A model generated the notes under the pieces. The model had not been told where the DNA came from. It saw only the letters and a list, made by a program, of their open reading frames with translations, and made no database searches. Positions 12,018 through 50,166 of a DNA stretch of 64,000 nucleotides are shown here, piece by piece. Origin of the DNA: an uncultured Actinomycetes bacterium (lineage in GTDB: Bacteria > Actinomycetota > Coriobacteriia > Anaerosomatales > PHET01); assembly GCA_947085035.1 (NCBI GenBank), contig CAMTUW010000010.1, forward strand, positions 2,356 to 66,355. The letters are read 5' to 3'. The first letter of the stretch is position 1. Each line of letters opens with the position of its first letter. The translations under genes were made by a program, and so were the position numbers.

Positions 12018-13277
12018 CTACTGCGAGGGCGGCACCACCGGGAAGCGCCCGGTGATCGCCGTGCGATCGATTCGCCGCTCGCCGGTGAACAGACTCGCGA
12101 GCGCGACATCCTCGCAGATACGCTCCATCAGCATCGGCCACCTGCGCTGGAACTCGAAGTAGTTCTGGCAGTTCTCGCGAGCATAGACGCCCGCTTCGCG
12201 CACCGAATACAGCGCCGCCTGGAAGTAGCGGCTCTTCTCCGGGCGCGAGATGGCGCGAAGCATCCCGGTGATGAACGCCCGCCAGCCAACGGAGGAGTCG
12301 ATGAACTCGCCCGGAAACGGCATCATCGACTGCGGCGTCACCTGGCGCAAGTCGACCTGGGACTTGGCGAACTCGATCTTGCGATGCTCATAGACGAATC
12401 GGTAGACGTCCTGGCGGAAACGCAGCGCCTCGCTGACGGGCTCCGGCGGCCGGTGGACCGCCTTCCAGCCGTCATCGATGAAGACATCCCCGCCGTGCAT
12501 GCGCACGTTGATGACGTAGTCCATGTCCTCGCCGCGCGTGACCCACGGGTCGAAGCTGACCGCCGAGAACATGTCGCGGTGCAACGCCATGATGCCACCG
12601 AACGCGATCTTCGCACGCTGGATGCGCGGCGGCTTCATCACCGCGTCGATCGCCTTGTTGAACGCGTCTCGCTGCCGCCAGAACATGTCGGACCAGTGAG
12701 CCGCGTCGTGCCTCTTCCAGTTGCCGGAGTGGTCCACGTAAAATCCGGTCTTGGCGAGAAGGGGGGTGCCGTCTTGCAGGCGCTCACCAAGCCCGTAGAG
12801 CGCGTTTTCGAGGAACTCGGGGCCCAAGACCACCTCGTCGTCATCGAAGAAGACGACCACGTCGTGGCCCAGCACAGCGGCGGCGATCAGTCCGACGTTT
12901 CGGACCGCGCCGTACCCTATGAGCGTCACGCCATCGATGAGGTCGGCGAACTCGAGTTGCTCGAGTCGGCGGTGGAGCGAGCCCATCTCGGCAGGACCGA
13001 ACACGAGCGCGTCGATTTCGGGGAACTCGTCGACGATCTCGCGAACCCGGTCCTCAGCCTGGTGGGCGATCGACGGATCGGTCACCGCCACGATGACGAC
13101 GACGCGACCGAGGCCGCGCACCTCGCGAAGTGACGCGAGGCAGTCGACCAGCGGTGGGTCGATCTCGTCGAGCGGAGTCGGATGATCGTAGGTGGCCGCG
13201 ATCTCATCGAGGGTTATGCGGTTGCGACCACCGCTGCGACGGGTCCAGAACGTGGGTATGACTACGACGGGATCCAC
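12018..13277 (-). CDS. GT-A-fold glycosyltransferase-like protein with helical C-terminal domain (function unknown)
   Basis: 419 aa, GTG start at 13277. Motifs are VVVIPTF.., RNVGLIAAAVLGHDVVVFFDDDEVV (a DxD-type motif) and a later GEDMDY. I cannot assign a family by eye. Confidence 0.45.
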   Translation of the reverse strand: MDPVVVIPTFWTRRSGGRNRITLDEIAATYDHPTPLDEIDPPLVDCLASLREVRGLGRVVVIVAVTDPSIAHQAEDRVREIVDEFPEIDALVFGPAEMGSLHRRLEQLEFADLIDGVTLIGYGAVRNVGLIAAAVLGHDVVVFFDDDEVVLGPEFLENALYGLGERLQDGTPLLAKTGFYVDHSGNWKRHDAAHWSDMFWRQRDAFNKAIDAVMKPPRIQRAKIAFGGIMALHRDMFSAVSFDPWVTRGEDMDYVINVRMHGGDVFIDDGWKAVHRPPEPVSEALRFRQDVYRFVYEHRKIEFAKSQVDLRQVTPQSMMPFPGEFIDSSVGWRAFITGMLRAISRPEKSRYFQAALYSVREAGVYARENCQNYFEFQRRWPMLMERICEDVALASLFTGERRIDRTAITGRFPVVPPSQ

Positions 13278-13327: not shown

Positions 13328-14002
13328 CTACATGATACCGCTACCGGCTTCGGATGTATCTGCCGCCAACAGGTCGCCCTCAGTGACGAGGCAGCGCTCC
13401 AAGGCCTCCGAGAGCACCTGATACGGTCGGGTGCCGATGAACAGCTCGTTACAGATGAGGGCTGCGGGCGTCCCGCTGATCCCCATTCCCGTTGCGAGGT
13501 GGAGGAACTGATGGAGGCGTTCGTCGAAGCGTCCCTCGGCAACTGCGGTCATGGCCTCTGCCGCGTCCAGTCCGGCTGCGGAGGCGATCCGCTCGAGCGC
13601 ACTCTCATCACCGATGTTCTCCGAGAATCCGTTGTATGCGGCAAAGATCGCCTCGTGAACCGCCTCGTGGACCTCGGGCCCGAGGTCGCGAGCGTACTCG
13701 CCCAGCGAGAGCGCGCGGTGCGTGTTCGGCACGAAGTCGGGAAACGTCAGCGTCAGTCCGCCCTCGCGCGCCATACGCGACATGTGCTCCCGGACCCGCT
13801 CGGAATGTCCCTCGCCAAGCGTCTCGATTCCTGCTCCCTCGACCGGGAAGTCAGGCCTGAGCTCGAACGGCACCACAAAGAGTTCGACGTCGTGCTCGGT
13901 ACGCAGGCGCTTGAGCCGGGGCCAATCGAGATAGCAGAACTGACAGGCGTAGTCGAAGAAGACGAGGATCCGTGGTCGCTCGACGCCCGCGCTCTCGGTC
14001 AT
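13328..14002 (-). CDS. cytoplasmic DsbA/FrnE-like thiol:disulfide oxidoreductase
   Basis: ORF 13328..14062 trimmed to the ATG at 14002, which forms an ATGA overlap with the upstream radical SAM stop. CxxC sits in ILVFFDYACQFCYL. There is no signal peptide. DsbA-like tail: GISGTPAALI. Confidence 0.75.
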   Translation of the reverse strand: MTESAGVERPRILVFFDYACQFCYLDWPRLKRLRTEHDVELFVVPFELRPDFPVEGAGIETLGEGHSERVREHMSRMAREGGLTLTFPDFVPNTHRALSLGEYARDLGPEVHEAVHEAIFAAYNGFSENIGDESALERIASAAGLDAAEAMTAVAEGRFDERLHQFLHLATGMGISGTPAALICNELFIGTRPYQVLSEALERCLVTEGDLLAADTSEAGSGIM

Positions 14003-15081
14003 CTGCGGTCCTTCCTGGTTTGCGCGACTGTGATGCCCAGATGACGACCGCACTGGGAGCACTCACCTGAATCGCCGAGCCCCACTGCGCGTGCCGAGAA
14101 ACCCCGTCGCTCGACCGCCAGTGCGTCACATGCGGGGCACCTGGTGTCCTCGCCGCCCACCACATCCACGTTTCCCAGATAGACGAAGCGCAACCCCTCC
14201 TCGATACCGATCGACCGCGCGCGCACGAGTGTCTCGAGCGGTGTCGGCGACAGGTGGGAGAACTCGAGACAGGGCGTGAACCTCGTCACGTGCCAAGGGG
14301 TCTCGGGGGAAAGCGATCGGGCGATCCACGAGGCGACGGCCCGGAGCTCCTCGTCGGAATCGTTCACGGTCGGAACAATGTTGGTCACGCACTCGACGTG
14401 CAGGCCGTGGGTGCGCAACGCGAGTTCTGCAGCGACGCGAACGGCCTCGGGATCGGACACGTGACACAGACGCTGGTAGGTCTCGTCGAAGAATCCTTTG
14501 ATGTCCGTGCGCCACACGTCGATCGCTTCCGCGAAGAGTTCGAGTCCGGCCGGGGTCACGTACCCGTTGGTCACCATGACGGTGTAGAGCCCTGCGGCCT
14601 TCGCCAGCCGAGCGCAGTCGAGCACGTACTCGAGCCAGATCACCGGTTCGTTGTACGTCCACGCAACGCCCTCGCACCCCTGATGAAGGGCCAGCGAGAC
14701 GACCTCGGATGGCTCCACGCGACGTAGAGCCGCGATCTGGGCTGCATCAGGATGAGAGATGCGCCAGTTCTGGCAGTGGCCGCACCTCATGGAGCAGCCG
14801 ACTCCGCCGACCGACAGAGCGCGTGAGCCCGGGCGGAAGTGGAAGACGGGCTTCTTCTCGATCGGGTCGGCCGCAATCGAGCTCACCAAGCCATAGGTGA
14901 GCGCTCTGAGGCTACCGCCGATGACGCCCCGCGCACCGCAGATTCCGCGGCCGCCTTCGGCTATCAAGCACGCGTTCGGACACAGACCGCAGCGAACACG
15001 CTCGTCTTCAAGCTTCCACAGCAGCGCGTCATGCACTGTACCCACCCTATCCCGAAGCCAGTTCCACGCGGTCACGCCCAT
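13999..15081 (-). CDS. radical SAM enzyme, AmmeMemoRadiSam / PFL-activase-like type
   Basis: ORF 13999..15306 trimmed to the ATG at 15081. Motifs: VRCGLCPNACLIAEGGRGICGARG, DPIEKKPVFHFRPGS, radical SAM CSMRCGHCQNW, and a C-terminal Cys pair (CPACD..CSQCG). The start overlaps the upstream GGDEF gene by 35 nt. Confidence 0.8.
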   Translation of the reverse strand: MGVTAWNWLRDRVGTVHDALLWKLEDERVRCGLCPNACLIAEGGRGICGARGVIGGSLRALTYGLVSSIAADPIEKKPVFHFRPGSRALSVGGVGCSMRCGHCQNWRISHPDAAQIAALRRVEPSEVVSLALHQGCEGVAWTYNEPVIWLEYVLDCARLAKAAGLYTVMVTNGYVTPAGLELFAEAIDVWRTDIKGFFDETYQRLCHVSDPEAVRVAAELALRTHGLHVECVTNIVPTVNDSDEELRAVASWIARSLSPETPWHVTRFTPCLEFSHLSPTPLETLVRARSIGIEEGLRFVYLGNVDVVGGEDTRCPACDALAVERRGFSARAVGLGDSGECSQCGRHLGITVAQTRKDRR

Positions 15082-16867
15082 GTCGCTTCGCACGGTACAG
15101 AGCCGCATCCGCGGCTTCGAGCAGCTTCTCGGCGGTGTGGTTCTCCTGCCCGTAGGCCGCCACACCAACCGAGGCCGCTGTGCGCAGACGTCGCCCGTCG
15201 CCCGAATCGACCCGCAACCCCCGAAGCGCCGCACGAATCTTCTCAGCGACCGCCCATGCGTCGGTCTTGGTCGTGCTGGGCAAGATGAGAGCGAACTCAT
15301 CTCCACCGTAGCGCACGGCGTGGTCCATCACCCGGATCTCCGAGTTCAGCAGGACCCCGACGCTGCGCAGCAACGCATCTCCGGCTGCATGACCGTAAGA
15401 ATCATTGACGTCTTTGAAGGAATCCAAGTCAAGCATTATGAGCGAGAACGGGGTCCCGTGACGCTCGGCGCGCGCAACCTCTTCGGCGAGTCTCGCATTG
15501 AACGCTCGGCGATTGAGCAGGCCCGTGAGCTCGTCGGTCACGGCTTCCATCGCGAAGCGCTCGCGCTCGCGAGTGAGACGTTTCCTCGCCAAGGGGAAAC
15601 ACAGGTCCCATGACGAGTTGCCCAGCCAGATCGCGGCCGCGTGCTCCACGCACGTATCGTAGCCGCAAGCGCCGCAGTCGATGACGGCGCTTCGGCTCGC
15701 GAACTCCCCCGCAACCAACACGCGATCGACCTCATCGTCATCGGGCACGATGACTGGCGCCGGACATGGCTCGAACCTGCGAATCATGTCGATGGGTGGG
15801 AGCGCCGAAAGGAAAGTGCGTGAGTCGACTTCAGGCGCCGGCAACCGCTCGCGATGGACCGCGTCGACATTGCGCTTCGCAAAGACCGACATCTTCTGGT
15901 TCACAGTGGGGCCGTCAACGCAGCCCTCGCAGCACAGCATGTCGACCACCGACGGGGCGGTCTCGCCGCGCACGATCGCGGTGAGTAGCCGATCGATATC
16001 GGCGAGCCCTCTGACCGAGACCATGTCGCGGTCGGTGCGGTCGCTCGCACGAAGAGTACGTCGCGGGAAGCCGTCAATCGCCGAGAGCTGCTTGGCGGCC
16101 TCGATGCGATGGGTCCGGCCGACCGCCATGGGCACCGCGAGCCCCTGCTCGATCAGCAAACGTAGTTCATCGAAGCCGATCGCGACGTCCACCGCGCCGG
16201 CCACCGAGGGGTGATGGATCTCGTCCTTGCGCGCCCAGCAGGGCGAGACATAGACGATAAGGACCTCATCCACGCGAAGTGCCCGCAGGAGTCGCGCTTG
16301 GACGACGTAGGGCGACATGAGGGGCACGAGCGCGGTGGTCAGTTCGGGGTAGAAGCGCCGGACCCAATCGACGGCCACGGGACACGTTGAACGCAGTCGA
16401 GGCAACGTCGCATCGACTCGAACATGTACCTGCTCGTAGGCCGCGGCGATGAGTTCCTCGCCCAAGACGGTCGATTCGACGTCGGCGAAACCGAGCGCGA
16501 AAAGAGCCTCGTCGACCTCTGTGCGAGACATCGGATGCATCGCGGCGATGTGCTCGCTGGCGAGAAGGGCGATGACCGGCACCGCGGATGCAAGCGCCGC
16601 ACGGACGCGCCCCAGATCATCTCGCACGACATTCGAGGTGGTCTTGCATCCGGTGACGCAGGCGCCACACTTCACGCACCGTTCGTGGATGACCTCGGTT
16701 CTGTCATCGACGACGCGCAGCGCGCGGGCGGGACACTGCCTGACACATCCCCAGCACGTCACACATTCATCGCGCGTATGGCTGATGAGCGCCTCGCCCG
16801 AAAACGGGATGACCACCCTGCGGATCGGTGGATCCGATACGCTCACGAACCTCTCCCCCCGGCTCAC
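15047..16867 (-). CDS. [FeFe]-hydrogenase-like Fe-S sensor domain fused to GGDEF diguanylate cyclase
   Basis: 606 aa. Two ferredoxin motifs (CVTCWGCVRQCP, CVKCGACVTGCK). H-domain-like motifs: LPRLRSTCPVAVDWVRRFYPEL (compare TSCCPxW), VYVSPCWARKDE (compare MPCxxKxxE) and DMLCCEGCVDGP (compare MACxGGCxxG). An RnfB-type FeS motif (CGACGYDTCVEHAAAI). GGDEF domain with an I-site (RVMDHAVRYGGDEF). The GTG start makes a GTGA overlap with the queT stop. Confidence 0.8.
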   Translation of the reverse strand: MSRGERFVSVSDPPIRRVVIPFSGEALISHTRDECVTCWGCVRQCPARALRVVDDRTEVIHERCVKCGACVTGCKTTSNVVRDDLGRVRAALASAVPVIALLASEHIAAMHPMSRTEVDEALFALGFADVESTVLGEELIAAAYEQVHVRVDATLPRLRSTCPVAVDWVRRFYPELTTALVPLMSPYVVQARLLRALRVDEVLIVYVSPCWARKDEIHHPSVAGAVDVAIGFDELRLLIEQGLAVPMAVGRTHRIEAAKQLSAIDGFPRRTLRASDRTDRDMVSVRGLADIDRLLTAIVRGETAPSVVDMLCCEGCVDGPTVNQKMSVFAKRNVDAVHRERLPAPEVDSRTFLSALPPIDMIRRFEPCPAPVIVPDDDEVDRVLVAGEFASRSAVIDCGACGYDTCVEHAAAIWLGNSSWDLCFPLARKRLTRERERFAMEAVTDELTGLLNRRAFNARLAEEVARAERHGTPFSLIMLDLDSFKDVNDSYGHAAGDALLRSVGVLLNSEIRVMDHAVRYGGDEFALILPSTTKTDAWAVAEKIRAALRGLRVDSGDGRRLRTAASVGVAAYGQENHTAEKLLEAADAALYRAKRHGRDRVELASG

Positions 16868-17427
16868 TCGTCACGCGAGATAATCTTCCCTAATCCTAGC
16901 CGTTCCAACGCGATCAGGAGAGGCATCCCCAGTCCGTAGAGGACCGTCGCCTGCCCGAGGCCGACGAAGACCACACCCACAAGGTACATCATCGCCCACT
17001 GGCCCTCAAAATCGATACCGAGAATGGGGATGCGGTACAGGCCCAACCCTTTGACCAGAAGCGGCAGGTACGCGGGCACGATCAGCGCGTTCGCAAGCAC
17101 CGGCCCCAGCAGCGCGAGCCACTTCGAGCTGCGAAAACGCCACGTCCACAGAGCACCGAGGGCGGTAGCGAGCGAGCCGAACACGACGTCGAGCAAGGCG
17201 AGAGGTCCAAGTGTCGCGAGATTGAACGCGTTGGCGATGGCAGACCCCAGCGCAAGCCCTGGAATCGCCGCGGGCGTGAACATGGCAAGTACGGTGACAG
17301 CCTCGCTCACGCGGAACTGGATGGGGCCCCATGCGAGAGCCGACATCGTCTGCAGCGCGAGCAGCGTGACGCCCGCGTACACGCCGGCGATCAGGGCGGC
17401 CCGAGCGATGAGGCGCGTTCGGTTCAC
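16864..17427 (-). CDS. queT: queuosine-precursor transporter QueT family (ECF S-component-like)
   Basis: 187 aa, GTG start. Pattern: ALIAGVYAGVTLL..GPIQFRVSEAVTVL...LLDVVFGSLATALGAL, typical of QueT (COG4708). Confidence 0.72.
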   Translation of the reverse strand: MNRTRLIARAALIAGVYAGVTLLALQTMSALAWGPIQFRVSEAVTVLAMFTPAAIPGLALGSAIANAFNLATLGPLALLDVVFGSLATALGALWTWRFRSSKWLALLGPVLANALIVPAYLPLLVKGLGLYRIPILGIDFEGQWAMMYLVGVVFVGLGQATVLYGLGMPLLIALERLGLGKIISRDE

Positions 17428-17502: not shown

Positions 17503-19581
17503 CTAGGAGGGAAGGACCGGCCCGGCCTCATCCCGGGCAACGAACAGACCGGTGCCGCCGGCCACAGCCATGCGTTCGAGCGCGTCGAGGAAGGCCGCGA
17601 CCACCCGCGGGTCGAACTGGGTGCCCACGGCTGTCTCCAGCTCTGCGCGGGCCTCCGGTGAAGTGAGCTTCTTCGCATAGGTGCGCTCACTTGTCATGGC
17701 GTCGTAGGCATCGGCCACACACAGGATGCGGGCGAGCAGCGGGATCTTCTCGCCTTTGAGACCATGCGGGTAACCCTTGCCGTCCCAGCGTTCATGGTGG
17801 TGGAGGATGATCGGTGTCAGCGACTTCAGGAATTCGATCTGATCAACGATCGAGGCTCCCAGCTCGACATGCTTTCGCACCAACGCCAACTCCTCGTCGC
17901 TGAGTTGACTCGGCTTGAGCAGGATCTCGCCAGGGATACCCGCCTTGCCCACGTCGTGAAGAATACCAGCGAACTTGAGTTGATCGACCGCCTCGTGGCC
18001 CAACCCGAGCTCCTCGCCGATCCTCACTGCGTAATCCATCACGCGGCCCGCGTGTCCGCTCGTCGCCCGCTCGCCCAAGTCGAGCGTGGCCGACAACGCC
18101 GCGATGGTCTTGGCGTAGTCGTTTCGAATGCGTGTGAACAGCGCAGCCCGACCGAAAGCCGCACCGCCGTGGGCGGCGATCCCCTCCAGGAGCGCATGGT
18201 CCTGAGCACCGAACGGGCACGCCTCCTCACGCGCGACGAACACCTGTCCGACATCGAGGTCGCCGTGGCGCAGATCCGCGATAGCAAGGGCCCAATCGTC
18301 GGAGTCCTCGCCTTCGACGAGACTTCCGCTGTGCGAGACGAACCGCACGTCTCGAATCGGATCCGCCTTCACGTCACGTCCCGAGACCTGCGAGAGGAAC
18401 TCGTCGACGGTCGCTCGCGAAACCTGGCCGCACAGCGCGACGTCGGCACGATCGCTGCCCCACCCGGTGAAGACGAGCCCGGCGACTCGATACGAGAACG
18501 CCTTCCCAAGCACACTGGACAGTAGATTCGCAACGCCGTCGATATCGGTCTGCGCACCCAGCGCGGTGGCGAGCTCATTGAGCTGCGCATAACCCATCAT
18601 CGCACGCTCCACCGCTTGGCGCTCGTCCTCACGATCGACGGCGATGGCGATGAACTGGCCGAATCGACCCAAGCGCGCCACGCGGTCCTGGGCCAGCGGT
18701 AGGACTGACTGGGACAGGCGTACTTCCAGCACGCCGAGTACGCGCTCGCCTTGGGTCAGGGGCATCGCCAACGTGGCGTAGCCCTCCTTCCCGGGTGCGA
18801 TGACGGTCCGTCTCGTTTCAGCGGCGCGACCAGCGGCCGTGGAGCGACTCGGAACGCGGGCGCCAAGCTGTCCTCGCCAGCCGTCTGTTCGTGCGACAAC
18901 CTCAAGCGATGCGCCGATTGGACGGAGAATCGCTCCGGCTTGGCCGCCCACAAGGTTGACTGCCTCCTCGGTGATTCCGCCCAGAGCCCCTGCGTCAAGA
19001 CGCTGGGTCGCTGCGACGTGTCTTCCCGCCGAGGCGAACAGTTTCAGCTCGTCTATTCGTTCACTCGCAGTGATGCGCTCCACGAACGCGTCGAGAACCG
19101 TGATCGCGCTCGAAGTGGCCATCGTCAGGTATGACTCAACCTGTCGTCTCGGGATGACCGGGAGCGCCTTGACCGTCCTGCGCGCCATCTCTTCGCTCAC
19201 GCCCCTCGCCAGCAGGTGTTCGTAGAGTCCCCGACGTTCGCGCGTCGACGTGACGAAGCCAGTCAGCACCACGTGAGCGAGTACCCGACCTCTATGCACC
19301 ACCGGCGAGTACAATGCCGCGAGTCCGGCTCGACAGATGATCCGACCGGTGTCCGCATCTGGCGCGGGACACGTGTCAAAGCAGGTCAACGGGCCCATGG
19401 TCCCAACATCGGTGGCAAGATGACAGTAGCCGCACCGATGACCGCCCGCCAACAACTCACACGCTCCGAAGTCCATGACAGAGACCGAGACCCCGGTCCC
19501 CTGGAACAGCGCGTCGGCGGCCGTACGCCACTCGGGAAGCGAGAAGGCACGAGCAGCGATTTCACGATCTGTTGCGGGCAC
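17503..19581 (-). CDS. PocR-like sensor + GAF domains + HD-GYP c-di-GMP phosphodiesterase
   Basis: 692 aa, GTG start. The N-terminus is Cys-rich and PocR-like (GHRCGYCHL..CFDTCP..RIICRAGL). Central GAF-like regions follow. The C-terminus has HDVGK and HHERWDGKGYPHGL (HD-GYP). Confidence 0.8.
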   Translation of the reverse strand: MPATDREIAARAFSLPEWRTAADALFQGTGVSVSVMDFGACELLAGGHRCGYCHLATDVGTMGPLTCFDTCPAPDADTGRIICRAGLAALYSPVVHRGRVLAHVVLTGFVTSTRERRGLYEHLLARGVSEEMARRTVKALPVIPRRQVESYLTMATSSAITVLDAFVERITASERIDELKLFASAGRHVAATQRLDAGALGGITEEAVNLVGGQAGAILRPIGASLEVVARTDGWRGQLGARVPSRSTAAGRAAETRRTVIAPGKEGYATLAMPLTQGERVLGVLEVRLSQSVLPLAQDRVARLGRFGQFIAIAVDREDERQAVERAMMGYAQLNELATALGAQTDIDGVANLLSSVLGKAFSYRVAGLVFTGWGSDRADVALCGQVSRATVDEFLSQVSGRDVKADPIRDVRFVSHSGSLVEGEDSDDWALAIADLRHGDLDVGQVFVAREEACPFGAQDHALLEGIAAHGGAAFGRAALFTRIRNDYAKTIAALSATLDLGERATSGHAGRVMDYAVRIGEELGLGHEAVDQLKFAGILHDVGKAGIPGEILLKPSQLSDEELALVRKHVELGASIVDQIEFLKSLTPIILHHHERWDGKGYPHGLKGEKIPLLARILCVADAYDAMTSERTYAKKLTSPEARAELETAVGTQFDPRVVAAFLDALERMAVAGGTGLFVARDEAGPVLPS

Positions 19582-24280: not shown

Positions 24281-26845
24281 TTATCCGGGCTCGCAGTAGT
24301 CGAGCATGAGTGCGAGATGTTTCATCCTGCCGGAGAACGTCTGGAGAGCGTCCGCGTAGAAATGACTCACGAGCGTAGTTCCGGACACGCGGCTCATGAT
24401 CACGTCGATGCGCCTCAATGCGGTCCGCATGCGCACGATCTCGGTCTCAGGATTCGTCTCACCGTCGCGGATGTGGCTGACTCTGCCTCTTACCACCCTG
24501 AACGGCATCTCATCGGACACGAAGTACTCGTCTATCTCGCGTTCGACGTTCGAAGACAGACGCGGGCCTCCCAGTTTCCTGAAGCTGATGAGTACGCCAT
24601 CGATCAGAGCGACGAATATCGCTCTGGCCTCCTCCGGCGCGATGTCGTCGACGCCCGAGACAGACACCGTCTCGCCTGACTCTTCAAGCTCGAGGAGCAG
24701 TTCCGCGAAGATCTCGACTACGGCGAAATCGAACTGCTTGCCGGCACAAGCGCGCAACTCCTCGATCGCTTCGCGCTGATCCCGGCCAACGCGATAGGGC
24801 CGGTCGGAGGTCATCGCCTCGTAGCTGTCCGCAACCGTGAGAATGCGTGCGAGCAGCGGGATCTCCTCGCCTCTGAGTCCTGCGGGATAGCCGGATCCAT
24901 CGTAGGACTCGTGATGGTGCCGGACCACCGGAGTGATGGCCCACGGGAAGGCGACGGGTTTGAGGATGTTGGCCCCGATGAGCGGGTGGTGACGCATCTC
25001 CGCCATCTCGTCGTCATCGAGGCGGCCGGGCTTGAGGAGGATCTCTTCGGGTACACCGATCTTGCCGATGTCGTGAAGATACGCGGCCATCTCGAGCGCG
25101 ATGCGCTGGTCGTGCGAAAGGCCCATGCGTTCGCCGATCATCATCGCGTACGTCGCCACCCGATCAGAGTGCCCCCGGGTGAACGTGTCCTTGGCGTCAA
25201 CCGCCGCCGCGAGCGAGCGGACGGTCGCGAGATACGCCTCCTGCAAGCTGCTGAACAGTTCGATGTTGCCGATCGCGATCGTGACGTGGTTCGCGATCGT
25301 CGAAAGCAGCCTGACGTCATCGCTTGAGAAGCGGTAGTCGGAACGACTCGAGCCGATGGTGATCGAACCGATGGTGCCCTCAGCCGAGACCAGCGGCACG
25401 CACAGTGCGGCCTTCGCCCCGGTGACGGTGTCGATCCGGTCGTGGCGGGAAGCGGTGTCCGGGTTGAAGATCAGCGGGCGCCCCTCTCGGACGACCCATT
25501 CGGACATGGACGAACGCACGGCGCCGTCGGTCGATGACTCCTGGGCACCACGGATCGCACGAAGTGCGAGCGCACCGCTCTCCCTGTCGCGAAGCGCGAC
25601 GTACCCGAGATCGAGATCGAAGATGCGCAGAGCGGATTCGAGCACGGTCCCGAGAAGCTCTTCCATGTCGAGGGAGGAACCGAGCGAGCGGCTCATCTCA
25701 TACAACGTCGCGAGTTCGAGCACCTTCTTCGTCAGAGACTCTGAGTGTTCGCGCAGCGAGTCGGTCATCACGTTGAACGTCCCGGCCAGCTCGGCGATCT
25801 CGTTGGAGCCGCGAACCTCGACCTTGGTCGAGAAGTCCCCGTCCGCGATGCGCCCGGCACCGGCCGCGAGGTCGGTCAGTGGGTCAGACACGGTTCGAGC
25901 GATCCACCCCCCCATGCCCACGAGGGCAAGGACTGCGATGAGCGACCACATGGCGATGAGATTGCGAGTCGTCGTCACCGTCTCCTGAGAGATCCCCTTG
26001 CTCGCTATTCCAACCAGGTAGCCTTGGGGAGCACCGGACTGGTCGAACGGAAGAACGACCGGCTCGACCCACAGCTGATAGGTGTCGTCACCGACCCGCA
26101 TCGAACCGCCCGTGAAGTCCCCGACGGCCGCTCTCTGCAGCGCATCCTCAATCTCGAGGGCTGTTCGTTTCATGGCGCTTTGAAGCGCACTCTCTCGTTG
26201 TGGGTCAAAGCCCTCCCCGACGACGCAGGCGAGGTTCGCGAAGTCAGCGCCGAAGAAGCAGACGGCGCGCTCAGCGCCAACGCCGAGACGACGGAGCAGG
26301 TGGTCGTCGATCGCATGAGACACGGCCAGGACCCGCCCCTGTCCGCCCAACGGGATCGGTTGCAACACGGTCATTGACGCGCGCCCGGTCAGGGTGGTCA
26401 TGAGACTGCTCGGGGTCTGGCCGACAAGTGAGGCGATCCGCGGGAGAACGACTGTCCCGACCTCAACGCCGCCGGTGCCGACCGAAGCCAATGCCCGCCC
26501 CTGGGCGTCGAGAACGACCATGTTGTCGAAAGCGAGTGCGCGTTCCTGGACGAGGATTCGATGACGCAGCGCCTGGAGGTCACCGACCCGTAGTGCTTCC
26601 AAGAGACGATCATCGTTCACGCACAGCTGCGCCTCGCGTTGCATCTGACCGACATGTTCACCGTAGCGCGCAGCGATGTTCTCGGTGGAGCTCTGAGCGA
26701 CCTGGGAGACCCATTTCGCGGTCAGGTCCTCGAGGAAGTATGAGGCGACGACCGTCGCGACGATCCCCACGATCACCGACGCGACAAGCAACGGGAAGAC
26801 GATCTGGTTGTACAGATGCGCTTTGACCCTGGACTTGCGTTTCAT
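24281..26845 (-). CDS. membrane sensor: extracytoplasmic domain + HAMP + GAF + HD-GYP phosphodiesterase, with an extra C-terminal domain
   Basis: ORF 24281..27166 trimmed to the ATG at 26845 (MKRKSRVKAHLYNQIVFPLLVASVIVGIV..). The longer form would overlap recR. HD-GYP motifs: HDIGK and HHHESYDGSGYPAGL. About 150 aa after the HD-GYP domain are unassigned. Confidence 0.8.
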   Translation of the reverse strand: MKRKSRVKAHLYNQIVFPLLVASVIVGIVATVVASYFLEDLTAKWVSQVAQSSTENIAARYGEHVGQMQREAQLCVNDDRLLEALRVGDLQALRHRILVQERALAFDNMVVLDAQGRALASVGTGGVEVGTVVLPRIASLVGQTPSSLMTTLTGRASMTVLQPIPLGGQGRVLAVSHAIDDHLLRRLGVGAERAVCFFGADFANLACVVGEGFDPQRESALQSAMKRTALEIEDALQRAAVGDFTGGSMRVGDDTYQLWVEPVVLPFDQSGAPQGYLVGIASKGISQETVTTTRNLIAMWSLIAVLALVGMGGWIARTVSDPLTDLAAGAGRIADGDFSTKVEVRGSNEIAELAGTFNVMTDSLREHSESLTKKVLELATLYEMSRSLGSSLDMEELLGTVLESALRIFDLDLGYVALRDRESGALALRAIRGAQESSTDGAVRSSMSEWVVREGRPLIFNPDTASRHDRIDTVTGAKAALCVPLVSAEGTIGSITIGSSRSDYRFSSDDVRLLSTIANHVTIAIGNIELFSSLQEAYLATVRSLAAAVDAKDTFTRGHSDRVATYAMMIGERMGLSHDQRIALEMAAYLHDIGKIGVPEEILLKPGRLDDDEMAEMRHHPLIGANILKPVAFPWAITPVVRHHHESYDGSGYPAGLRGEEIPLLARILTVADSYEAMTSDRPYRVGRDQREAIEELRACAGKQFDFAVVEIFAELLLELEESGETVSVSGVDDIAPEEARAIFVALIDGVLISFRKLGGPRLSSNVEREIDEYFVSDEMPFRVVRGRVSHIRDGETNPETEIVRMRTALRRIDVIMSRVSGTTLVSHFYADALQTFSGRMKHLALMLDYCEPG

Positions 26846-27005
26846 AGGCTTCCAGCGATCATGATTGCCGCTCACCTCTTGTCGTCCATGGTGACGACCG
26901 CGCCACACGAGAACCCGTGCAAGCACAGACCCTGCCGAACCGATGGCGCCGAGTCGCGCTCCGGCGATGATAACGCAATGATCGCCGGGTGAGGTATCGG
27001 ACCGC

Positions 27006-27602
27006 TCACATCTCGCGTCGGCACTCCATCGCCCGCCCGAGCGTGACCTCATCCGCGTACTCGAGATCGCCGCCGACCGGAAGCCCGCTCGCGATACGAG
27101 AAACCCGGACGCCGAGAGGCTTGATGAGTCGCGCGAGATACAGCGCGGTCGTCTCGCCCTCGACATTCGGGTTCGTGGCCGCGACGACTTCCCTGATCAG
27201 ACCGGAGCCGACGCGCTCGATGAGCTCCCGTATCCGCAGTTGATCGGGGCCGATTCCGTCAATCGGCGAGATCGCGCCGTGAAGGACATGGTAGACGCCC
27301 GCGAACCCATTCGTCCGCTCGATCGCCGCGACGTCGCGCGGCTCCTCGACCACGCACACGATGGTCGTGTCGCGTCCGGGCTCAGCACACACACCGCACA
27401 GCTCGCCCTCGGCGAAGTTGAAGCAGCGGGGGCAGAAGTGAATCCGCCTTTTGACGTCGACGATCGCTGAGGCGAGCCGCTCGGCATCGGAGGACTCGGC
27501 GGTCAACAGCCAGTACGCGATGCGCTGCGCGCTCTTCGGTCCGATGCCGGGTAGCCGCTCGAGCTCCTCGAGGAGTCCTTGGATCGGGGCGGGATAGCGC
27601 AC
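27006..27602 (-). CDS. recR: recombination protein RecR
   Basis: 198 aa. Motifs: [13 protein letters not shown] (HhH), the C4 zinc finger CPRCFNF..CGVC, and a Toprim domain. Confidence 0.93.
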
Positions 27603-31362: not shown

Positions 31363-31629
31363 ATGGCCGTCTTGATTGCCGCATACATCGTGGCCGGTCT
31401 TGCTTGGGGATTCGCCTACTGGTTCGGTCTCAGAAACGGGCGTGCCGGAGTCAGTCGGCGTGTAGCGTGGGTCCGCGCCTTGAGCATGTTGTTGCTCTTG
31501 ATGGTTGTGTCCGGCTTCCAGGGCTCCTCATCAGTTCTCGCGTCATCGTTCGTACTCCCGTGCTGCTACTTACTCGGCTGGCACCGCACGAGGCGTACCG
31601 AAATCGCCGCGAGGGCCAAGATCATCTGA
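31363..31629 (+). CDS. small hypothetical membrane protein (88 aa)
   Basis: The ATG lies 8 nt after GGGAGA and 27 nt after the M48-like stop. Two to three hydrophobic helices. Its 3' end overlaps the convergent ORF 31566..32780 by 64 nt. Confidence 0.4.
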   Translation: MAVLIAAYIVAGLAWGFAYWFGLRNGRAGVSRRVAWVRALSMLLLLMVVSGFQGSSSVLASSFVLPCCYLLGWHRTRRTEIAARAKII

Positions 31630-32780
31630 CCTGCGACAACTGAGTGAATGGACTCGCACCCCACGTGCGTGCACTTCACTACGCGAGGTGATGGCCGCTG
31701 GTAGGTGGAGACATACGTGTGAGGAGGTGTCCCCCATGGAACGACACAACGCACCCGCCAAGTCACTCGCGTCGTCGACGCACTCATCGGCGGCCCAGTG
31801 ACCAAAGAGGATTCCACTTTCAGCATCTCATCAGGAATCGCGTACGTGATGCCCGTGAATCCGCGTCCGTCCTCGCTGGAGCCCTCGAGAAGGTAGAACG
31901 GCAGGACGTAGAGCTGGTCGTAGCCGAGAGGGTCATTCATGTAGCTCATCGAGATGCTCTCGACAGTTCCTGCCGACTGCCCATCGAGGCCGAAGAACTG
32001 GGCCCGCCCGTTCCGAGCCGCGTCCAGCGCCTGCTCGGGAGTCTTGAGAGCGTATTCTGCGAAGGGCTCGATGTTTCGCCATACCGACATGGCGCCGAGA
32101 ATCCTTCCATCCTCTCCGAACTGAACGATGACCTTGGGGCCCACGCCTTTGTCGAATGCGAATCCGGCGAGCGGCTTGTGGCTGAAGCGGGCTTCGACCA
32201 TGTAGGGCCTCGCGACCCAGGCACCATTCTCGTATGTGCTGACGACGTTGCCCCTGTTCACGTCCCGGAACTCGGCTGCCTCCGGCATCAGATCCATGTC
32301 GTTGAGAAAGGTCTCGGCGCGCTCACGGTATTGCTCGTCGGATAGGAACCGCTTCAGCGGCTGAGCCTGTTTCTCGAACCCCTTCGTGGTGTAGTCGAAA
32401 GACCCCGTTGCTCTATCCACCTCGAAAGAGGCGTTCGAGTCCGCGATGACGAACGAGGCGGGCAACTCCTGAGCCTTACCCGCGAAGCCGAGCCTGCGGG
32501 CCTGGGACTCGAATGAGGCCCGCGAGACATCCGCCGGCTTCACCCTGTACACCATCATCCGCGTCGGCAGGGATTCCGTCGCCGCCCGGGATTCAAGCGC
32601 ACGAGGGCCACCACCGGGGCCCATGCCGTCCTGAGGCGAGATGGTGAGTACGACGTTGCGCTCCGCAGGTCTGGTTTGTGACTGCGGTCGCGTCGCGCTT
32701 GACGTAATCTCGCAGCCGACCACCAGCGCCCCCAAGGCGAGGACCAAGACGACTCTGAGCGCAGAAACCAAGCTTCTCAC
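31566..32780 (-). CDS. hypothetical lipoprotein
   Basis: ORF 31566..32789; I prefer the GTG at 32780 (GGGAGG 8 nt upstream). Signal plus lipobox: VRSLVSALRVVLVLALGALVVGC. The last ~75 codons (31566..~31790) have atypical composition and lower GC3, so the true 3' end is uncertain. Confidence 0.6.
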   Translation of the reverse strand: MRSLVSALRVVLVLALGALVVGCEITSSATRPQSQTRPAERNVVLTISPQDGMGPGGGPRALESRAATESLPTRMMVYRVKPADVSRASFESQARRLGFAGKAQELPASFVIADSNASFEVDRATGSFDYTTKGFEKQAQPLKRFLSDEQYRERAETFLNDMDLMPEAAEFRDVNRGNVVSTYENGAWVARPYMVEARFSHKPLAGFAFDKGVGPKVIVQFGEDGRILGAMSVWRNIEPFAEYALKTPEQALDAARNGRAQFFGLDGQSAGTVESISMSYMNDPLGYDQLYVLPFYLLEGSSEDGRGFTGITYAIPDEMLKVESSLVTGPPMSASTTRVTWRVRCVVPWGTPPHTYVSTYQRPSPRVVKCTHVGCESIHSVVAGQMILALAAISVRLVRCQPSK

Positions 32781-32809
32781 GTACTGCACCTCCCGCAGAC
32801 ATCGTACCG

Positions 32810-32885: not shown

Positions 32886-35800
32886 TCACGAAACAAACGA
32901 GCGACCCAAGCGACGCAGGGCGACACCAAGTGCGCCCGCCGCAAGCGCTGCCAGAGCGAGAAGCGTCCACTCCCCACCCGTGAAGGGCAGGAAGGGTTCC
33001 CCGGTCTGGACTCGCCAGTCGTCACGATCATTCGTGCTGTTGTCATCGCCGGGAGTCGTAACGACGACGACGTTGTCGATCCTGGTCACGCTGTCTGGAA
33101 GATCACTGTCGATGCGGACGCTGTAGGTGAACTCCTGAGGGCCGGCCTCAGGACTCAAGGGACCAGCGACCTCCCACGTGATCCGACCGCCCGCGACCGA
33201 GCCTCCACCGGCATTCGTCACCGTGACATACCGCTCGTCGAAGTCATCGACGATCGTGATGCCGGATGCGTCCCCATCGCCTACATTCTCGTAGGTGACG
33301 GTGTAGATGACGGTGTCCCCCGCAATGGCGCGGGTCTTGTTGGCGGACTTTTCGATGCTCATGTCTGGCTTGGGAGTGAAAGGCAGCGCAACGTCGACGA
33401 ATGCATCGTCTTCGCCTCTCACCTCATGGCCTGCGGCGTCAACCGCGGTGGCCACCACGACGTTCGTGGTGGGTTCTGCAGGCGATGCGGTCATGGTGAA
33501 CGTGACCGGCTCACCTTCGATCGGCAGAGATGCGAGCGTACCCACGACACCGAGCTTATCGTCGGTCAGAGCCACGTTGAACAGATCGACGTCCCCGAGG
33601 TTCGACACCACGTAGGTGTAGACCACGGATTCTCCGAGCACGATCTCTGTCGGTGAAACCGTCTTCACGACGCCGATCGCAGGAGCGACCACGTCGACGA
33701 ATTCGGGCTCACTGCTATCAACAGACCCGTAGAACTCCGTCTCGGGAGTGCCGTACCAGCCAGTGGCCGTGCCGATGTTGGTGACGTCAGCAGCTATGGC
33801 CTGGATGATGCTCACCGTGTCAGACGCCCCCGGAGCGAGTGCCGGTATCGTCCCGACCGGACCGAGTATGTCGTCGGTCACCGCTATGTTGAACAAGGCG
33901 ATGTCGCCCTCGTTCTTCACCAGGAAGGTGTAGGTGACCGGAGTACCGCTGAGTACGACGTTACTCGAGGCGGACTTGAGGATGCTGATGCCGGGATTGA
34001 AGACCTGCACCGTCACGGTGTCGGTCTCACTGTACTCGTTCTCGAACTCGTCGTAGCCCGTGACCGTGACGACGTTGGTCGTGGTCTCGTCGAGCACCGC
34101 GCTCTTGGTGAGCGTGACCGGCTCGCCCCCGACAGGGAGTTCGTCGATCGTGCCGATGTGACCAAGCTTGTCGTCGTGGACCATGAGCGAGTAAAGCGGT
34201 GCGTCACCCGTGTTGGTGACGGTGAACGTGTATTCCACCGTCGACCCTGAGACCACCGGGCTGGGTGAAGCGGACTTCTCGACCGTGAACGACGGAGAGA
34301 GCGCGTCGACACTGGCCGGATCGGTAGCGAGCACCGAGCCTGCGAAGTCCGTCTCCTCCGTGCCGTAGGAGGCCTCAACAGTGCCGATGTTGGTGACGTC
34401 GCCACTGATGACGGCGCTCTTGGTGAGCTGTGTCGGAGCACCGGGCATCAGGTGCTCGATGGTTCCGATCTCACCGAGGATGTCGTCGGTGACGACGACG
34501 TCATGGAGCATGATGTCGCCGGTGTTCTCGATCGTGTAGGTGTAGACGACGGTGTCGCCCACGACCACGCGCTCGCGATCGACGGTCTTTTCGATCCGGA
34601 TGCGCGGGTCGAACACCTCGACCGTGGCGCTGTCTGAATCGGAGACCCGGTGCTGGTACTGGTCGCGTCCGGTGACCTCACCGAGGTTCTCGGTGGTGTC
34701 GAAGAGCGCGACACCCGCGGTGAGCGTGGAGGACTGTCCCACGCCGAGCATCGGGATCGTGCCGATACCTCCCAGCTTGTCGTCGGTCACAACCAGGTCG
34801 TAGAGCACGACATCACCGACGTTTTCGACGACGTAGGTGTAGGTCACCATGCCGCCCTTGATGGTCGGGTTCGGCGAACCCTGCTTGTCGATCTCGACCT
34901 TCGGCGAGACCACGCGAACGCTGGCCTCGCTCGAATCTGTCACCGACCCGTAGAACTCCGTCTCGGGAGTGCCGTACCAGCCGGTGGCCGCGCCGACGTT
35001 GGTCGTGTCTTCGGCCAGGTTCGTCGTGATGCTCACCGTGTCAGAGGCCCCCGGAGCGAGCGCCGGGATCACCCCGACCGGACCGAGCTTGTCGTCGGTC
35101 ACCTCTATGCCGAACAGGGCGATGTCGCCCTCGTTCTTCACGAGGTAGGTGTAGATGACCTCGCCGCCCGGCAGCACCACGCCGCTCGAGGCGGACTTGA
35201 CGATGCTGAGAGCGGGGTTGAAGACCTGCACCATAGCCTCGTCGCGATCCGTCACTCGCAGAGCGAGTGCGTCATCACCGCGCACGGTGGCCACGTTGGT
35301 GGTCGTCGTGGTGAGAACCGCTTCTGCGGTCAGGGTCACCGTCTGGCCAGGGGCCATCGTTCCGATGGCGGCACCGGGAACAGCGAGCTTGTCGTCGCTA
35401 AGGGTCACGTCATACAGCGTGTCCTGACCGGAGTTGGTCACGACGTAGGTGTACTCGACATCAGCCGGGTTCACCGCTCTTGTCGGCGCCGCGGTCTTCT
35501 TGACCGAGATCGCCGGCTTGAGGATATCTACGCTGTGTCCGTCCTGCGCGAAGATCGGCGCCCCGATGATCGGTGTGCCGTCCACCCGTGCGGTGTTCGG
35601 CAACGGGTCGGGGTCGCCCGCGAGCACTGTGCGCGTCGCGTTGATCGTCTGGCTCGCGCCTGAGGCAAGCGTGCCGAGATTCCGGTTCAGCCCGAGGAGC
35701 GGGTCTGTCACGACCACATTCGTCAAGGCGTAGTTGCCCGAGTTCGTGACTTCGATTCTGTAGGTGATCACGTCTCCGACATGGGCAAGAGCAGGTCCGC

Positions 35801-41457: not shown

Positions 41458-43554
41458 GTGGCCGATGACGATGGAGACGCCTTGACCGGTCGAGAGCATC
41501 ACAGCATCGCGCGCCGTGGTTCGAGATGTACGTGGCTCGCAGCGCTCGTCCTCGCCGTCATGGTCTTCTCGGCGTCCCCGACGCCTGCCGAGCCTCGTCC
41601 GGGCGACAGTGTCGCCGGTGTCCCGACGGCGAGAGGGATGGCTGGCCCGGCGACGTTCGCGTTGCGCTCGGACTCTGTGTCGATCGCATCGGGCGAGGAG
41701 TTCGCCTTCACCGCCATCGCGCAAGTCCCCGAGGGGACCGACAGTGTGACGATGCGTTTCCAGCTCAAACACCCCACAGGCAAGCTGATCTTCCAGCGCA
41801 CTCGAATCGTGAACGAGCCAACGTCTCGCCGGGTCGAGGAACCCTTCTCACGCGAGACCGGCGACCTTTCGCTTCGACCGGGCCTCTACCCCGTGACCCT
41901 CGCTGCCAGCGCGCGTATCGACGGAACGGTGCACGAGACCGTCGTCGAGTCCTTCCTGCTGGTGTTCGATCCGGACGCGACCGCGGTTCCCGTCGTGTTC
42001 GTCGCCAGGATCAGCGGAGCCCCTCTCTCGGATTCCCAGGGCCGCTTCGTCTCCGATCCGGGCCGGTTCACCCGGACGCTCGACGAGGCCGGGAGCCTCG
42101 CTTCTTGGGTGATCGCGAATCCGTGGGCGAGGATCACCGTCGCGATCCCTCCGCTGCTTCTCGAGGAGTGGGTCCGCATCGCCGGCGGATTCGAGCTTGT
42201 CGGCCCCGAGGGCGTGGAAGACGTCTCGGCCGACTCTGCGGTCGCTCGTGAGTACGCCGCGACGCTCGGGCTGCTCACGGCGGCCATCGAGACCGGCAGG
42301 CTGGAACTCGCCGCGATCGGCTTCGCTGACCCCGACATCCGCGGCCTCGAGTCGGCGGGACTGACCGACGACCTCGTCGCGCACTACGAAAGCGGCCTGT
42401 CCTCCACGTTCGCCTCGCTCAAGACCTCTCCGTCGACCGGAACGGTCCCGGCTGGCGGGTGTCTGCCGGAGAAAGCGGCTCACGCGCTTGAAACGGCGGG
42501 AATCGGGTACGCGGTGGTCGACGCCGACTGCGTGCGCTCGAAGGAGACGTCCGTGGCGCCGTCATCGTACAGAGTGGTCGGCAGCGGAGTCGTGGCGCTC
42601 GTTTCCGATGCGGGCGTCTCGCAGGCGGTTGCCTCGGGGGATGCGGCTCTTCTCGTCGACAGCGCCTTTCGGCGTCTGCTGTCGGGAAGCACGGGGCCGC
42701 TCACGATCTCGGTCGTATTGGGGCCCGGATCCTCGGATGCCGCGAAGCTGATCGCGTGCGCCACATCCCTCGCGCCGCATCGTTGGGTATCGATGCGCAC
42801 CGGTCGCGAAGCCGCCTCTCGACCGAAACGCACGGTCAAGCTCGTGGAGAGAGGACCCAAGGGCTCGGCGCCCGATGGCTACTGGGCCGACGTCGCCGAC
42901 GCGCGTCGATGGGCGGGCGCTTTGCGAGCGGCGATCGGGGACGCGGCCGCCGAGACGGTGATAGCTGAGCGCAGTTCGCTCATCGCGGCCTCGTCGACGT
43001 GGGCGGGCGCCGACGATGGCTGGGTTCTCGCCGACAGAGGGCGCACGTTCGCCGACACCGCCACGAGATTGGGCCGCGAGGTACTCTCGAAGGTGACGGC
43101 CTCGGTCGAGCCGATCACACTTGCGGGTACCGCCGGGGACCTGCCGGTCACCATCAGCAACGATTCCGGGCGTGCGCTTGATGTTCGGATGGTGGCCCGA
43201 ACGAGCAAGGGTGTGACCGTCCAGGGCTCCGACTCGGTCACGATGACCCTCGACCCGCAGGACAACTTCGTGAAGATCCCCATCGCTTTGAGCAACGTGG
43301 TCGAAGGCGAGGTCCGTGTCGCCGTCCTCGCGGGCGCCGTCGAGCTGAGCTCGAAGACGGTCACCGTGCGTGCCTCGTACTTGGACAGAATCGCGCTTGT
43401 AGGGGGAATCGTCTTGATGATGATTGGAGTTCTCGTGTTCATCATCAGGAGAGTGCGTGCGCAAGAGGCCGCCATGGATGCCACGAGTTCCGGCGAGCGA
43501 TACACTGACCGGGACCGGCGCTCTTCAACCGTGACTGAGAAAGGCTTCCGATGA
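41458..43554 (+). CDS. large exported protein with C-terminal membrane anchor (function unknown)
   Basis: 698 aa, GTG start. N-terminal hydrophobic segment [20 protein letters not shown]-terminal [21 protein letters not shown]. Its position upstream of trxB-trxA recalls the actinobacterial Rv3909-type (DUF6049) neighbourhood; this is inference, not verified. Confidence 0.55.
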
Positions 43555-46261: not shown

Positions 46262-46290
46262 GGCCTCTCTCACGCAGTGTGAGGGGGGCC
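46262..46290. terminator. GC-rich hairpin between convergent trx operon and cbiM (possible bidirectional terminator)
   Basis: GGCCTCTCTCAC-GCAGT-GTGAGGGGGGCC (12-bp stem including G-U pairs). It overlaps the last codons of cbiM. The + strand has only a weak T-run afterwards (TTGTCCGTTG). Confidence 0.35.
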
Positions 46291-47286: not shown

Positions 47287-47353
47287 GGTCGTTCTCCTCG
47301 CCGGTAGCAGGTGTATCGTGCCGGGCGCATTCTCGATGCGAATCCTTAAGTGC

Positions 47354-47366
47354 TATGACTTTCATA
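47354..47366. promoter_or_regulatory. palindrome TATGA-CTT-TCATA, candidate NikR operator
   Basis: A perfect 5-3-5 inverted repeat in the only AT-rich patch between divergent cbiM and nikR. The half-site resembles the E. coli NikR half-site GTATGA/TCATAC, but the spacing differs (N3, not N16). Confidence 0.3.
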
Positions 47367-47385
47367 TTCGTGCTACGATACCGAA

Positions 47386-47414
47386 AGCCTAGAATGGCGC
47401 TCGTCGCCCGTCAA
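47386..47414 (-). promoter_or_regulatory. candidate sigma70-type promoter for cbiM (TTGACG-17 nt-TAGGCT)
   Basis: Minus strand has -35 TTGACG (47409..47414), a 17-nt spacer, and -10 TAGGCT (47386..47391). It overlaps back-to-back with a plus-strand TAGAAT (47390..47395) that could serve nikR. Confidence 0.35.
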
Positions 47415-47910: not shown

Positions 47911-47922
47911 CGAGGTCTGAGC

Positions 47923-50158: not shown

Positions 50159-50166
50159 GCGAACCG

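Follow-up and report, generated by a model that had tools for sequence, protein, structure and literature searches.

We analyzed a 64,000-nucleotide stretch of DNA (the window) from an uncultured Actinomycetes bacterium of the order Anaerosomatales (contig CAMTUW010000010.1) and focused on one gene of its minus strand, at 15047-16867, which encodes a HydS-like iron-sulfur (Fe-S) module, of the kind found in putative sensory [FeFe] hydrogenases, fused to a GGDEF diguanylate cyclase. The reading that we prefer, and hold with middling confidence, is that the product is a one-component Fe-S redox- or oxidant-sensing diguanylate cyclase whose hydrogenase-like domain (H-domain) lacks the canonical [2Fe] site. 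The first-pass annotation of this DNA had proposed a sensor converting H2 or redox state into cyclic di-GMP (c-di-GMP). Its general logic, a one-component sensor feeding c-di-GMP synthesis, appears to hold at the level of sequence. Its specific signal, H2, is weakened by changes in the residues that contact the cyanide (CN) ligands, by an H-domain score of 100 bits, and by the finding of no hydE, hydF, or hydG in the 64-kb window. H2 sensing by the protein itself is only partly supported.

The gene joins a HydS-type Fe-S module to an intact GGDEF domain

The open reading frame (ORF) is real, and a regular-expression search recovered every motif that had been quoted for it; the ORF and its motif set are far beyond chance expectation. 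The maximal ORF encodes 606 amino acids (aa), and the in-frame GTG at 16846 (codon 8) is probably the true start, since a Shine-Dalgarno-like GGGGGAGAGG lies just 5' of that codon. The resulting 599-aa product agrees in length with its relatives (596-600 aa). The gene and its parts, all on the minus strand, are as follows.

15047..16867, minus: HydS-like Fe-S sensor module plus GGDEF domain (maximal ORF, GTG start, 606 aa)
16628..16783, minus: N-terminal F-domain with two ferredoxin-type [4Fe-4S] motifs (Fer4_10, 3.2e-6; regular expression)
15908..16579, minus: H-domain (Fe_hyd_lg_C), residues 97-320 (Pfam, PDB profile match, Foldseek)
16550..16564, minus: LASEH, counterpart of the group A "APS" (A230-P231-S232), with Ser104 and Glu105 (residue map)
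16364..16402, minus: L1 motif PRLRSTCPVAVDW; C162 corresponds to the CpI cubane ligand C300, and T161 to C299
16220..16255, minus: L2 motif VYVSPCWARKDE; C210 corresponds to C355, S208 to M353, R213 to K358, and E216 to E361
15908..15943, minus: L3 motif DMLCCEGCVDGP; L311 corresponds to M497, C313 to C499, and C316 to C503
15593..15679, minus: C-terminal accessory cluster Cx2Cx4Cx16C (C398, C401, C406, C423; regular expression, PF04060)
15539..15598, minus: linker helix of fixed length, residues 424-443 (DSSP assignment of the AlphaFold2 model, predicted local distance difference test score [pLDDT] >90)
15059..15544, minus: GGDEF diguanylate cyclase domain (Pfam, 8.6e-47; TIGR00254, 1.2e-51)
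15293..15334, minus: RVMD I-site (R512, D515) and GGDEF motif 521-525 (regular expression, family columns)

A profile scan for ferredoxin, Fe_hyd_lg_C, FeS, and GGDEF domains, which had been put forward as a check, returned all four above their Pfam gathering scores. Fer4_10 matched at 3.2e-6 and GGDEF at 8.6e-47. Fe_hyd_lg_C (PF02906) matched significantly and over the whole profile (1.7e-28; 100.4 bits against a cut-off of 22.1; profile positions 9-245 of 245), and FeS (PF04060) matched at 9.3e-6 (25.7 bits against a gathering score of 23; 34-44 bits in relatives). The two CxxCxxCxxxC sites, at residues 35-45 and 64-74, contain the F-domain cysteines C35/38/41/45 and C64/67/70/74, which are invariant or nearly so among 104 homologues. 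The L1 to L3 motifs were found as LPRLRSTCPVAVDWV, VSPCWARKDE, and MLCCEGCVDG.

To relate these residues to characterized enzymes, we aligned a family profile to solved hydrogenases, with CpI numbering.

A103: CpI A230
S104: CpI P231
E105: CpI S232
T161: CpI C299, the proton-relay position
C162: CpI C300
P186: CpI P324
Y187: CpI Q325
S208: CpI M353
C210: CpI C355
R213: CpI K358
E216: CpI E361
L311: CpI M497
C313: CpI C499
C316: CpI C503

The cysteines of the H-cluster type, C162, C210, C313, and C316, do not vary among the 104 family members or among 126 wider relatives. The ligand positions are therefore kept in all four cases, as had been claimed, with one amendment: the third ligand is C313 and not C312, which varies across the 104 members (N/S/C/A). 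The L3 pair thus reads C313-x2-C316 and lacks one residue relative to the Cx3C found in group A and in TamHydS, the group D protein of Thermoanaerobacter mathranii. C316 occupies the place of C503, the cysteine that bridges to [2Fe] in hydrogenases. The Thr noted at the first Cys of the TSCCP motif is T161, aligned with CpI C299. The motif CGACGYDTC, originally described as RnfB-type, is present and falls within the PF04060 match; it is, more precisely, part of the Cx2Cx4Cx16C cluster, the C-terminal signature common to group C (M2f) and group D (M2e) enzymes (Land et al., PMC8163306). Two N-terminal [4Fe-4S] motifs, the loss of C299, and a C-terminal Cx2Cx4Cx16C are the marks of a HydS-type module, and the protein has all of them.

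The cyclase half is equally well kept, in line with the description of a complete GGDEF domain with an RxxD I-site. The GGDEF motif is intact in 102-104 of the 104 homologues, and the I-site residues R512 and D515 are present in every one; D482, N488, D497, K594, and R598, together with R512 and D515, are each conserved in at least 99. The RVMD (512-515) sits five residues upstream of GGDEF (521-525), and the domain also matches PleD, DosC, and WspR in the PDB. Judged by these residues, the GGDEF domain keeps all catalytic, metal- and GTP-binding, and I-site positions.

Structure prediction supports the same arrangement. The family profile matches TmHydA in the PDB (9.3e-24). An earlier model, built from a 16-sequence alignment, was mediocre (pLDDT 70.8), and its N-terminal part matches [FeFe] hydrogenases in the PDB by Foldseek: 8a6t at 4.3e-16, and DdH and CpI at 1e-13 to 1e-15, with TMq of 0.55-0.64. 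The full-length AlphaFold model from the 104-sequence alignment reached a pLDDT of 92.4 and a predicted template modeling score (pTM) of 0.79. On these models, the H-domain is predicted to have the [FeFe]-hydrogenase fold. In the full-length model, one unbroken, rigid helix of 20 residues (424-443) joins the last cluster cysteine to the GGDEF domain, and the linker from C423 to D445 shows no length variation (judged from the four commonest characters in columns 423-455 of the 104 homologues).

The pocket for the [2Fe] subcluster is remodeled

In group A enzymes (CpI, HydA1), P231/S232 and K358 hydrogen-bond the two CN ligands of [2Fe]. At these positions, the protein carries S104/E105 and R213, and the residues that contact the CN ligands are thus not those of the canonical site. 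We compared these positions among 110 other HydS-like proteins, TamHydS, and the separate clade to which the window protein belongs (see below).

P231: kept in 105 of the 110 other HydS-like proteins; kept in TamHydS; Ser, Thr, Ala, or Pro in the clade
S232: Ser, Ala, or Thr in all 110; kept in TamHydS; Glu in 12 of 13 clade members
K358: Lys in 103 and Arg in 4 of the 110; kept in TamHydS; Arg in the family and Lys, Ala, Gln, Met, or His in its orthologues

Within the family columns, E105 is invariant, and R159 is specific to the clade. For Fe_hyd_lg_C, clade members score 97-130 bits, and eight of the nine relatives scanned score 145-197 bits, with the ninth (P0146) at 113. GGDEF fusions that have a canonical pocket score 156-181 bits.

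The Fe-S module is a modular input, and the GGDEF fusions form a separate clade

An exhaustive search of 1.84 billion representative sequences gave 2867 matches. The family itself collapses to some 15 representatives with at least 43% identity; beyond it, identity falls to about 30% in a very large set of sequences, which align colinearly with residues 27-431. In these relatives, the same module of two Fer4 motifs, H-domain, and PF04060 cluster is joined to a methyl-accepting chemotaxis protein (MCP) domain, to HisKA/HATPase with or without a receiver, to a GAF-GAF-kinase, to a sigma54 activator with or without PAS, to PAS alone, or to no output domain. Because relatives fuse the same module to such varied outputs, we regard the Fe-S module as a modular signaling input and GGDEF as one more output of this known input. 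The relation to putative sensory [FeFe] hydrogenases of the HydS type, proposed in the first-pass annotation, is upheld by a PAS-type relative that shares 31% identity (E 3e-56) and is colinear over residues 26-430.

Eight distant proteins, at 31-36% identity, share the L1 motif R-S-T-C-P. In seven of them, the GGDEF domain was shown or confirmed; the remaining one (P0138) has a match to the GGDEF motif only. The family and these eight proteins group together in 86 of 100 neighbor-joining (NJ) bootstraps, and the family alone in 100 of 100. The eight look like orthologues in other anaerobic Actinomycetota, since their loci share an aspartate kinase-ASD ... TauE/LytS-LytTR/GNAT neighborhood. 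Outside the clade, GGDEF fusions with a canonical pocket also occur (P0137, P0144, and P0265); GGDEF was therefore taken up as an output at least twice. In P0265 (locus L090, 434-2824; 796 aa), a canonical-pocket HydS-like module is fused to both a GGDEF and an HD-GYP domain, and by its domain content this protein could be a bifunctional enzyme that both makes and degrades c-di-GMP, governed by a single Fe-S input.

Membership in group D was suggested by Ser at M353 and Leu at M497, and was ruled out by identity, by the tree, and by the missing E252. For this comparison, the TamHydS sequence was rebuilt from the supplement of PMC13104023 with optical character recognition frame errors repaired, and the published residue numbers all fit. 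The window module shares 23% identity with TamHydS (E 4e-25), and the NJ distance to TamHydS is 2.27, against 1.76 for the median relative. Because of this lower identity and greater distance, we place the module closest to group C-like proteins and not to group D. Among the group D path residues, D309 aligns with E289, and an equivalent of E252 was not found in an alignment that is ambiguous there. The phylogenetic placement called for in the first-pass annotation yields, in the NJ tree, a clade of its own that lies nearer to group C-like proteins than to TamHydS; the protein has no match to the PAS domain that marks group C.

Comparison with known systems

Group C (M2f) proteins, such as Thermotoga maritima HydS (TmHydS), share with the window protein the two [4Fe-4S] clusters, a four-Cys H-domain without C299, and Cx2Cx4Cx16C; they are its closest sequence relatives, and many have the same Cx2C spacing in L3. 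Unlike them, the window protein has no PAS match, and its GGDEF domain starts 20 residues after C423, reached through one helix. It further differs from group C in carrying Ser (not Gly) at M353, Glu at S232, Arg at K358, and R-S-T-C-P in L1, and in its separate clade. TamHydS, in group D (M2e), consists of the three-part Fe-S module without PAS, as does the input half of the window protein, and both have Ser at M353 and Leu at M497. The C-terminal helix of TamHydS after the last Cys is predicted to pair in a parallel dimer, and the window protein also has a helix there. In contrast, TamHydS keeps P231, S232, and K358, has Cx3C in L3, and has no output domain, and its proton relay E252 has no clear equivalent in the window protein.

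Related logic is known from other protein classes. HydDB lists sensory [FeFe] subtypes linked to a histidine kinase (C1), to chemotaxis (C2), and to a phosphatase (C3), and records a link to a diguanylate cyclase only for [NiFe] group 2c. The [NiFe] group 2c putative H2 sensors and HoxBC/HupUV-HoxJ likewise place a hydrogenase-derived sensor over c-di-GMP or a kinase; they differ in having an unrelated metal site and fold (large and small subunits) and several subunits instead of one polypeptide. Nar1/NARFL (IOP1), the eukaryotic cytosolic Fe-S assembly factors, are H-domain proteins that bind only [4Fe-4S]. With the H-domain fold, conserved cysteines, and presumably no [2Fe], they provide a precedent for an H-domain without an H-cluster, and they differ from the window protein in having neither the Cx2Cx4Cx16C cluster nor a signaling output. 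On the cyclase side, PleD, WspR, and DosC are 35-45% similar in the GGDEF domain and agree with the window protein in their catalytic and I-site residues; such cyclases are normally regulated by way of an N-terminal helix and the geometry of the dimer, whereas their inputs are a receiver domain or a heme globin and not an Fe-S hydrogenase-like module.

We found no GGDEF-linked [FeFe] hydrogenase or H-cluster domain in the searchable literature, in keeping with the first-pass remark that no characterized example was known. The GGDEF fusion represents a known type of putative sensor with a new output, and it makes up a clade of its own; the searchable literature does not report it.

Hydrogen metabolism of the host

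The window also holds a nickel-uptake and [NiFe]-maturation cluster (46270-54961), about 33 kb from the sensor gene.

46270-47286, minus: CbiM+PDGLE
47416-47910: NikR
47923-48735: CbiQ
within the ORF 48141-49502: ECF ATPase (match from residue 203)
50059-52551: HypF
52527-52847: HypC
52851-53942: HypD (477 bits)
53783-54961: HypE (455 bits)

Because of this cluster, we conclude that the host makes [NiFe] hydrogenases. No model for HydE, HydF, or HydG matched among the ORFs scanned in the 64-kb window, and the Pfam annotation of the flanks showed no hyd genes at two family loci and at five loci of distant relatives. Cultured Anaerosomatales grow on H2 with [NiFe] 1i/3b hydrogenases and HypA-F, and no [FeFe] enzymes or maturases are mentioned for them (PMC9686372).

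Working model and alternative explanations

Residues 1 to about 430 form a diverged input module of the HydS type (group C/D). In our working model, the protein would act as a parallel homodimer, an arrangement that we infer because pairing along the C-terminal helix is predicted for TamHydS and because a GGDEF enzyme needs two half-sites. A change in redox or ligand state along the Fe-S chain would alter the packing of the two linker helices; this packing would set whether the two GGDEF half-sites meet and c-di-GMP is made. The I-site would cap the cyclase output, and the conserved neighboring HD-GYP enzyme would break c-di-GMP down. In this clade, the H-domain most probably no longer has a canonical [2Fe] subsite, and the signal would then more probably be the redox state of the cell's pool of low-potential electrons, or damage to the clusters by oxidants; H2 availability would then be reported only indirectly, via the organism's [NiFe] hydrogenases, and not by H2 binding to the protein. 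We weight redox sensing above direct H2 sensing because of the divergence of the pocket, the weaker domain score, and a context that has so far yielded only [NiFe] enzymes. In addition, the TamHydS C-terminal cluster does not undergo reduction by H2 (PMC13104023).

Several observations weigh against this preference. All four H-cluster cysteines, together with R159, T161, E105, Y187, S208, R213, D265, and E314, are invariant; the pocket is therefore strongly constrained, and a cofactor may still sit in it. The Thr at C299 and the Arg at K358 could serve as a slow proton relay and as a CN contact, respectively, and Arg at K358 also occurs in 4 of the 110 otherwise canonical relatives. The search for hydEFG covers the 64-kb window and the annotated flanks of related loci, which are a part of the respective genomes, and archaea produce active [FeFe] hydrogenases without hydEFG (PMC11216029). 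The characterized relatives TmHydS and TamHydS bind an H-cluster (PMC8163306). Lastly, the dimerization and the helix signaling of the model are inferred.

Many of these points would favor a true H2 sensor, in which a complete, perhaps modified H-cluster is present and H2 reduces the chain or shifts the H-domain so as to switch the GGDEF domain. We consider this tentatively possible, on the unlikely side. The four ligating cysteines are invariant, the protein matches HydS exactly in having lost C299 and in carrying the C-terminal cluster, TmHydS and TamHydS react with H2 as well as bind the cluster, and Arg213 and Thr161 are chemically plausible replacements for K358 and C299. H2 would also be a meaningful cue, as the host lineage lives on it and hypFCDE and nickel uptake genes lie in the window; reports of group C enzymes come exclusively from genomes that have other H2 genes (PMC5520028). 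Set against this, the CN-contact positions vary in the orthologues (K358 is Ala or Met in some, S232 is Glu), the H-domain scores lower with its HMM (hidden Markov model), no hydEFG turned up within the 64 kb or the flanks annotated for related loci, and the paper on the isolates reports only [NiFe] enzymes (PMC9686372). A variant of direct sensing would place a non-canonical H2-reactive cofactor in the remodeled pocket (Arg159, Thr161, Glu105), matured independently of HydEFG, possibly via the adjacent radical SAM protein. We give this genuine H2-to-c-di-GMP sensor a slim chance; if true, it would be an H2 sensor with a non-canonical cofactor in bacteria that otherwise use only [NiFe] hydrogenases.

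Two explanations remain. The Fe-S module could be a structural or electron-storage remnant, with the cyclase set only by expression level and I-site feedback; many GGDEF proteins do have degenerate or orphan N-terminal domains, and the H-domain has diverged (100 bits). This is improbable in view of the invariance of all 16 cluster cysteines and of the pocket residues (104 homologues, at least 136 species), the fixed length of the linker, and the use of the same module to drive many different signaling outputs in relatives. A catalytic [FeFe] hydrogenase with an incidental GGDEF domain fits the Fe_hyd_lg_C match and the hydrogenase fold, and is nevertheless very nearly discounted: the proton-relay cysteine C299 is replaced (T161), scores for the hydrogenase models fall far below their cut-offs (TIGR04105, 112 against 450; TIGR02512, 57 against 406; NF040763, 50 against 765), partner subunits were not found nearby, and even TmHydS and TamHydS show very low turnover (PMC8163306).

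Whichever signal applies, the fusion offers a practical advantage. H2 sensing by HydS-type proteins is still unsettled, and a PAS domain or the lack of any output gives nothing easy to measure, whereas an intact diguanylate cyclase on the same polypeptide would provide a direct enzymatic readout under H2, N2, reductant, or air. Such an output would render the disputed sensory role of HydS directly testable. In addition, the canonical-pocket fusions P0137 and P0144 and the remodeled-pocket clade form a natural contrast that could reveal the residues needed for H-cluster binding. The family would tie hydrogen or redox status to behavior controlled by c-di-GMP in those widespread and for the most part uncultured Coriobacteriia of the subsurface that live on H2.

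Family spread and gene neighborhood

A search with the sensor module only gave 531 clusters, of which the best 120 all combine Fe_hyd_lg_C with GGDEF, with lengths of about 600 aa and identities of 55-72%; the named members among them are called "diguanylate cyclase [Coriobacteriia bacterium]". At least 136 species-representative genomes carry relatives. The best 80 of these 136 are all from metagenome-assembled genomes of uncultured Coriobacteriia or other Actinomycetota; carriers among the 80 listed include Anaerosomatales, HGW-Actinobacteria, and UBA bins, plus two closed chromosomes. The highest identity to the window protein among the representatives is only 63%, and we therefore take its own species to be absent from them. 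A database protein listed as identical, P0001 (Logan ERR3478701), differs at residue 271 (about 16055-16057), with Ile (FPRRILRAS) in place of the Thr encoded in the window (FPRRTLRAS); the window therefore derives from a distinct, if nearly identical, assembly or strain.

Across related loci, the gene order is near-invariant: HD-GYP phosphodiesterase, QueT, the sensor-cyclase gene, radical SAM, and DsbA-like. In the window, the neighbors are as follows.

17503..19581, minus: PocR-GAF-HD-GYP protein, a putative c-di-GMP phosphodiesterase (HD_5, 9.4e-40; PocR; GAF)
16864..17427, minus: QueT-family transporter (Pfam QueT, 1.1e-34)
13999..15108, minus: AmmeMemoRadiSam-type radical SAM protein (TIGR04337, 298.5 bits against a 220-bit cut-off)
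13328..14002, minus: DsbA-like thioredoxin-fold gene in the same co-directional string (Pfam DSBA, 7.8e-29)

The HD-GYP gene lies 75 nt upstream of queT, has an intact HD...GYP motif, and is present in 59 related loci; the PocR region of its product is rich in cysteine. A second HD-GYP protein (24281-27166, minus) with a HAMP+GAF input and an intact HD...GYP is encoded upstream of the cyclase. The two HD-GYP proteins and the cyclase would, from their domains, constitute a local, conserved c-di-GMP make-and-break module.

The queT stop overlaps the start of the maximal sensor ORF by 4 nt, and the two genes are adjacent in 79 of 79 related loci. An Rfam scan of 12-21 kb found no preQ1 or other riboswitch ahead of queT at E <= 1, and a scan for promoters and terminators found none above shuffled expectation. 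The radical SAM gene is directly downstream of the sensor gene and adjacent to it in 75 of 77 loci (1 of the 4 loci examined for orthologues in the RSTCP clade); its start is uncertain (15108 or 15081), and no AMMECR1 or MEMO partner was evident among the annotated neighbors in related loci L003-L082. Further neighbors in related loci are an aspartate kinase, ASD, a two-component pair, TauE, GNAT, and a LytTR regulator. A functional linkage of the sensor gene to QueT or to the radical SAM gene was considered and rejected, as aspartate kinase and ASD are just as syntenic; because such housekeeping genes are equally collinear, we read the synteny as vertical inheritance. The same gene string includes a 419-aa protein without a Pfam match (12018-13277, minus) that is about 66% identical in 71 related loci.

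Elsewhere in the window, a gene for a DsrE2-like sulfur carrier (NF047629, below cut-off) adjoins one for a NarI/DsrM-like membrane cytochrome b (61311-62846), a pair that hints at sulfur-linked respiration. Three long ORFs had no match in the NCBIfam scan (41458-43554, plus; 31566-32789, minus; 57176-58246, plus), and some of them could be non-coding shadows, the GC content here being 64%. A putative surface protein of 1579 aa (32886-37625, minus) contains three DUF7507 repeats together with DUF11, CARDB, and SpaA-like domains.

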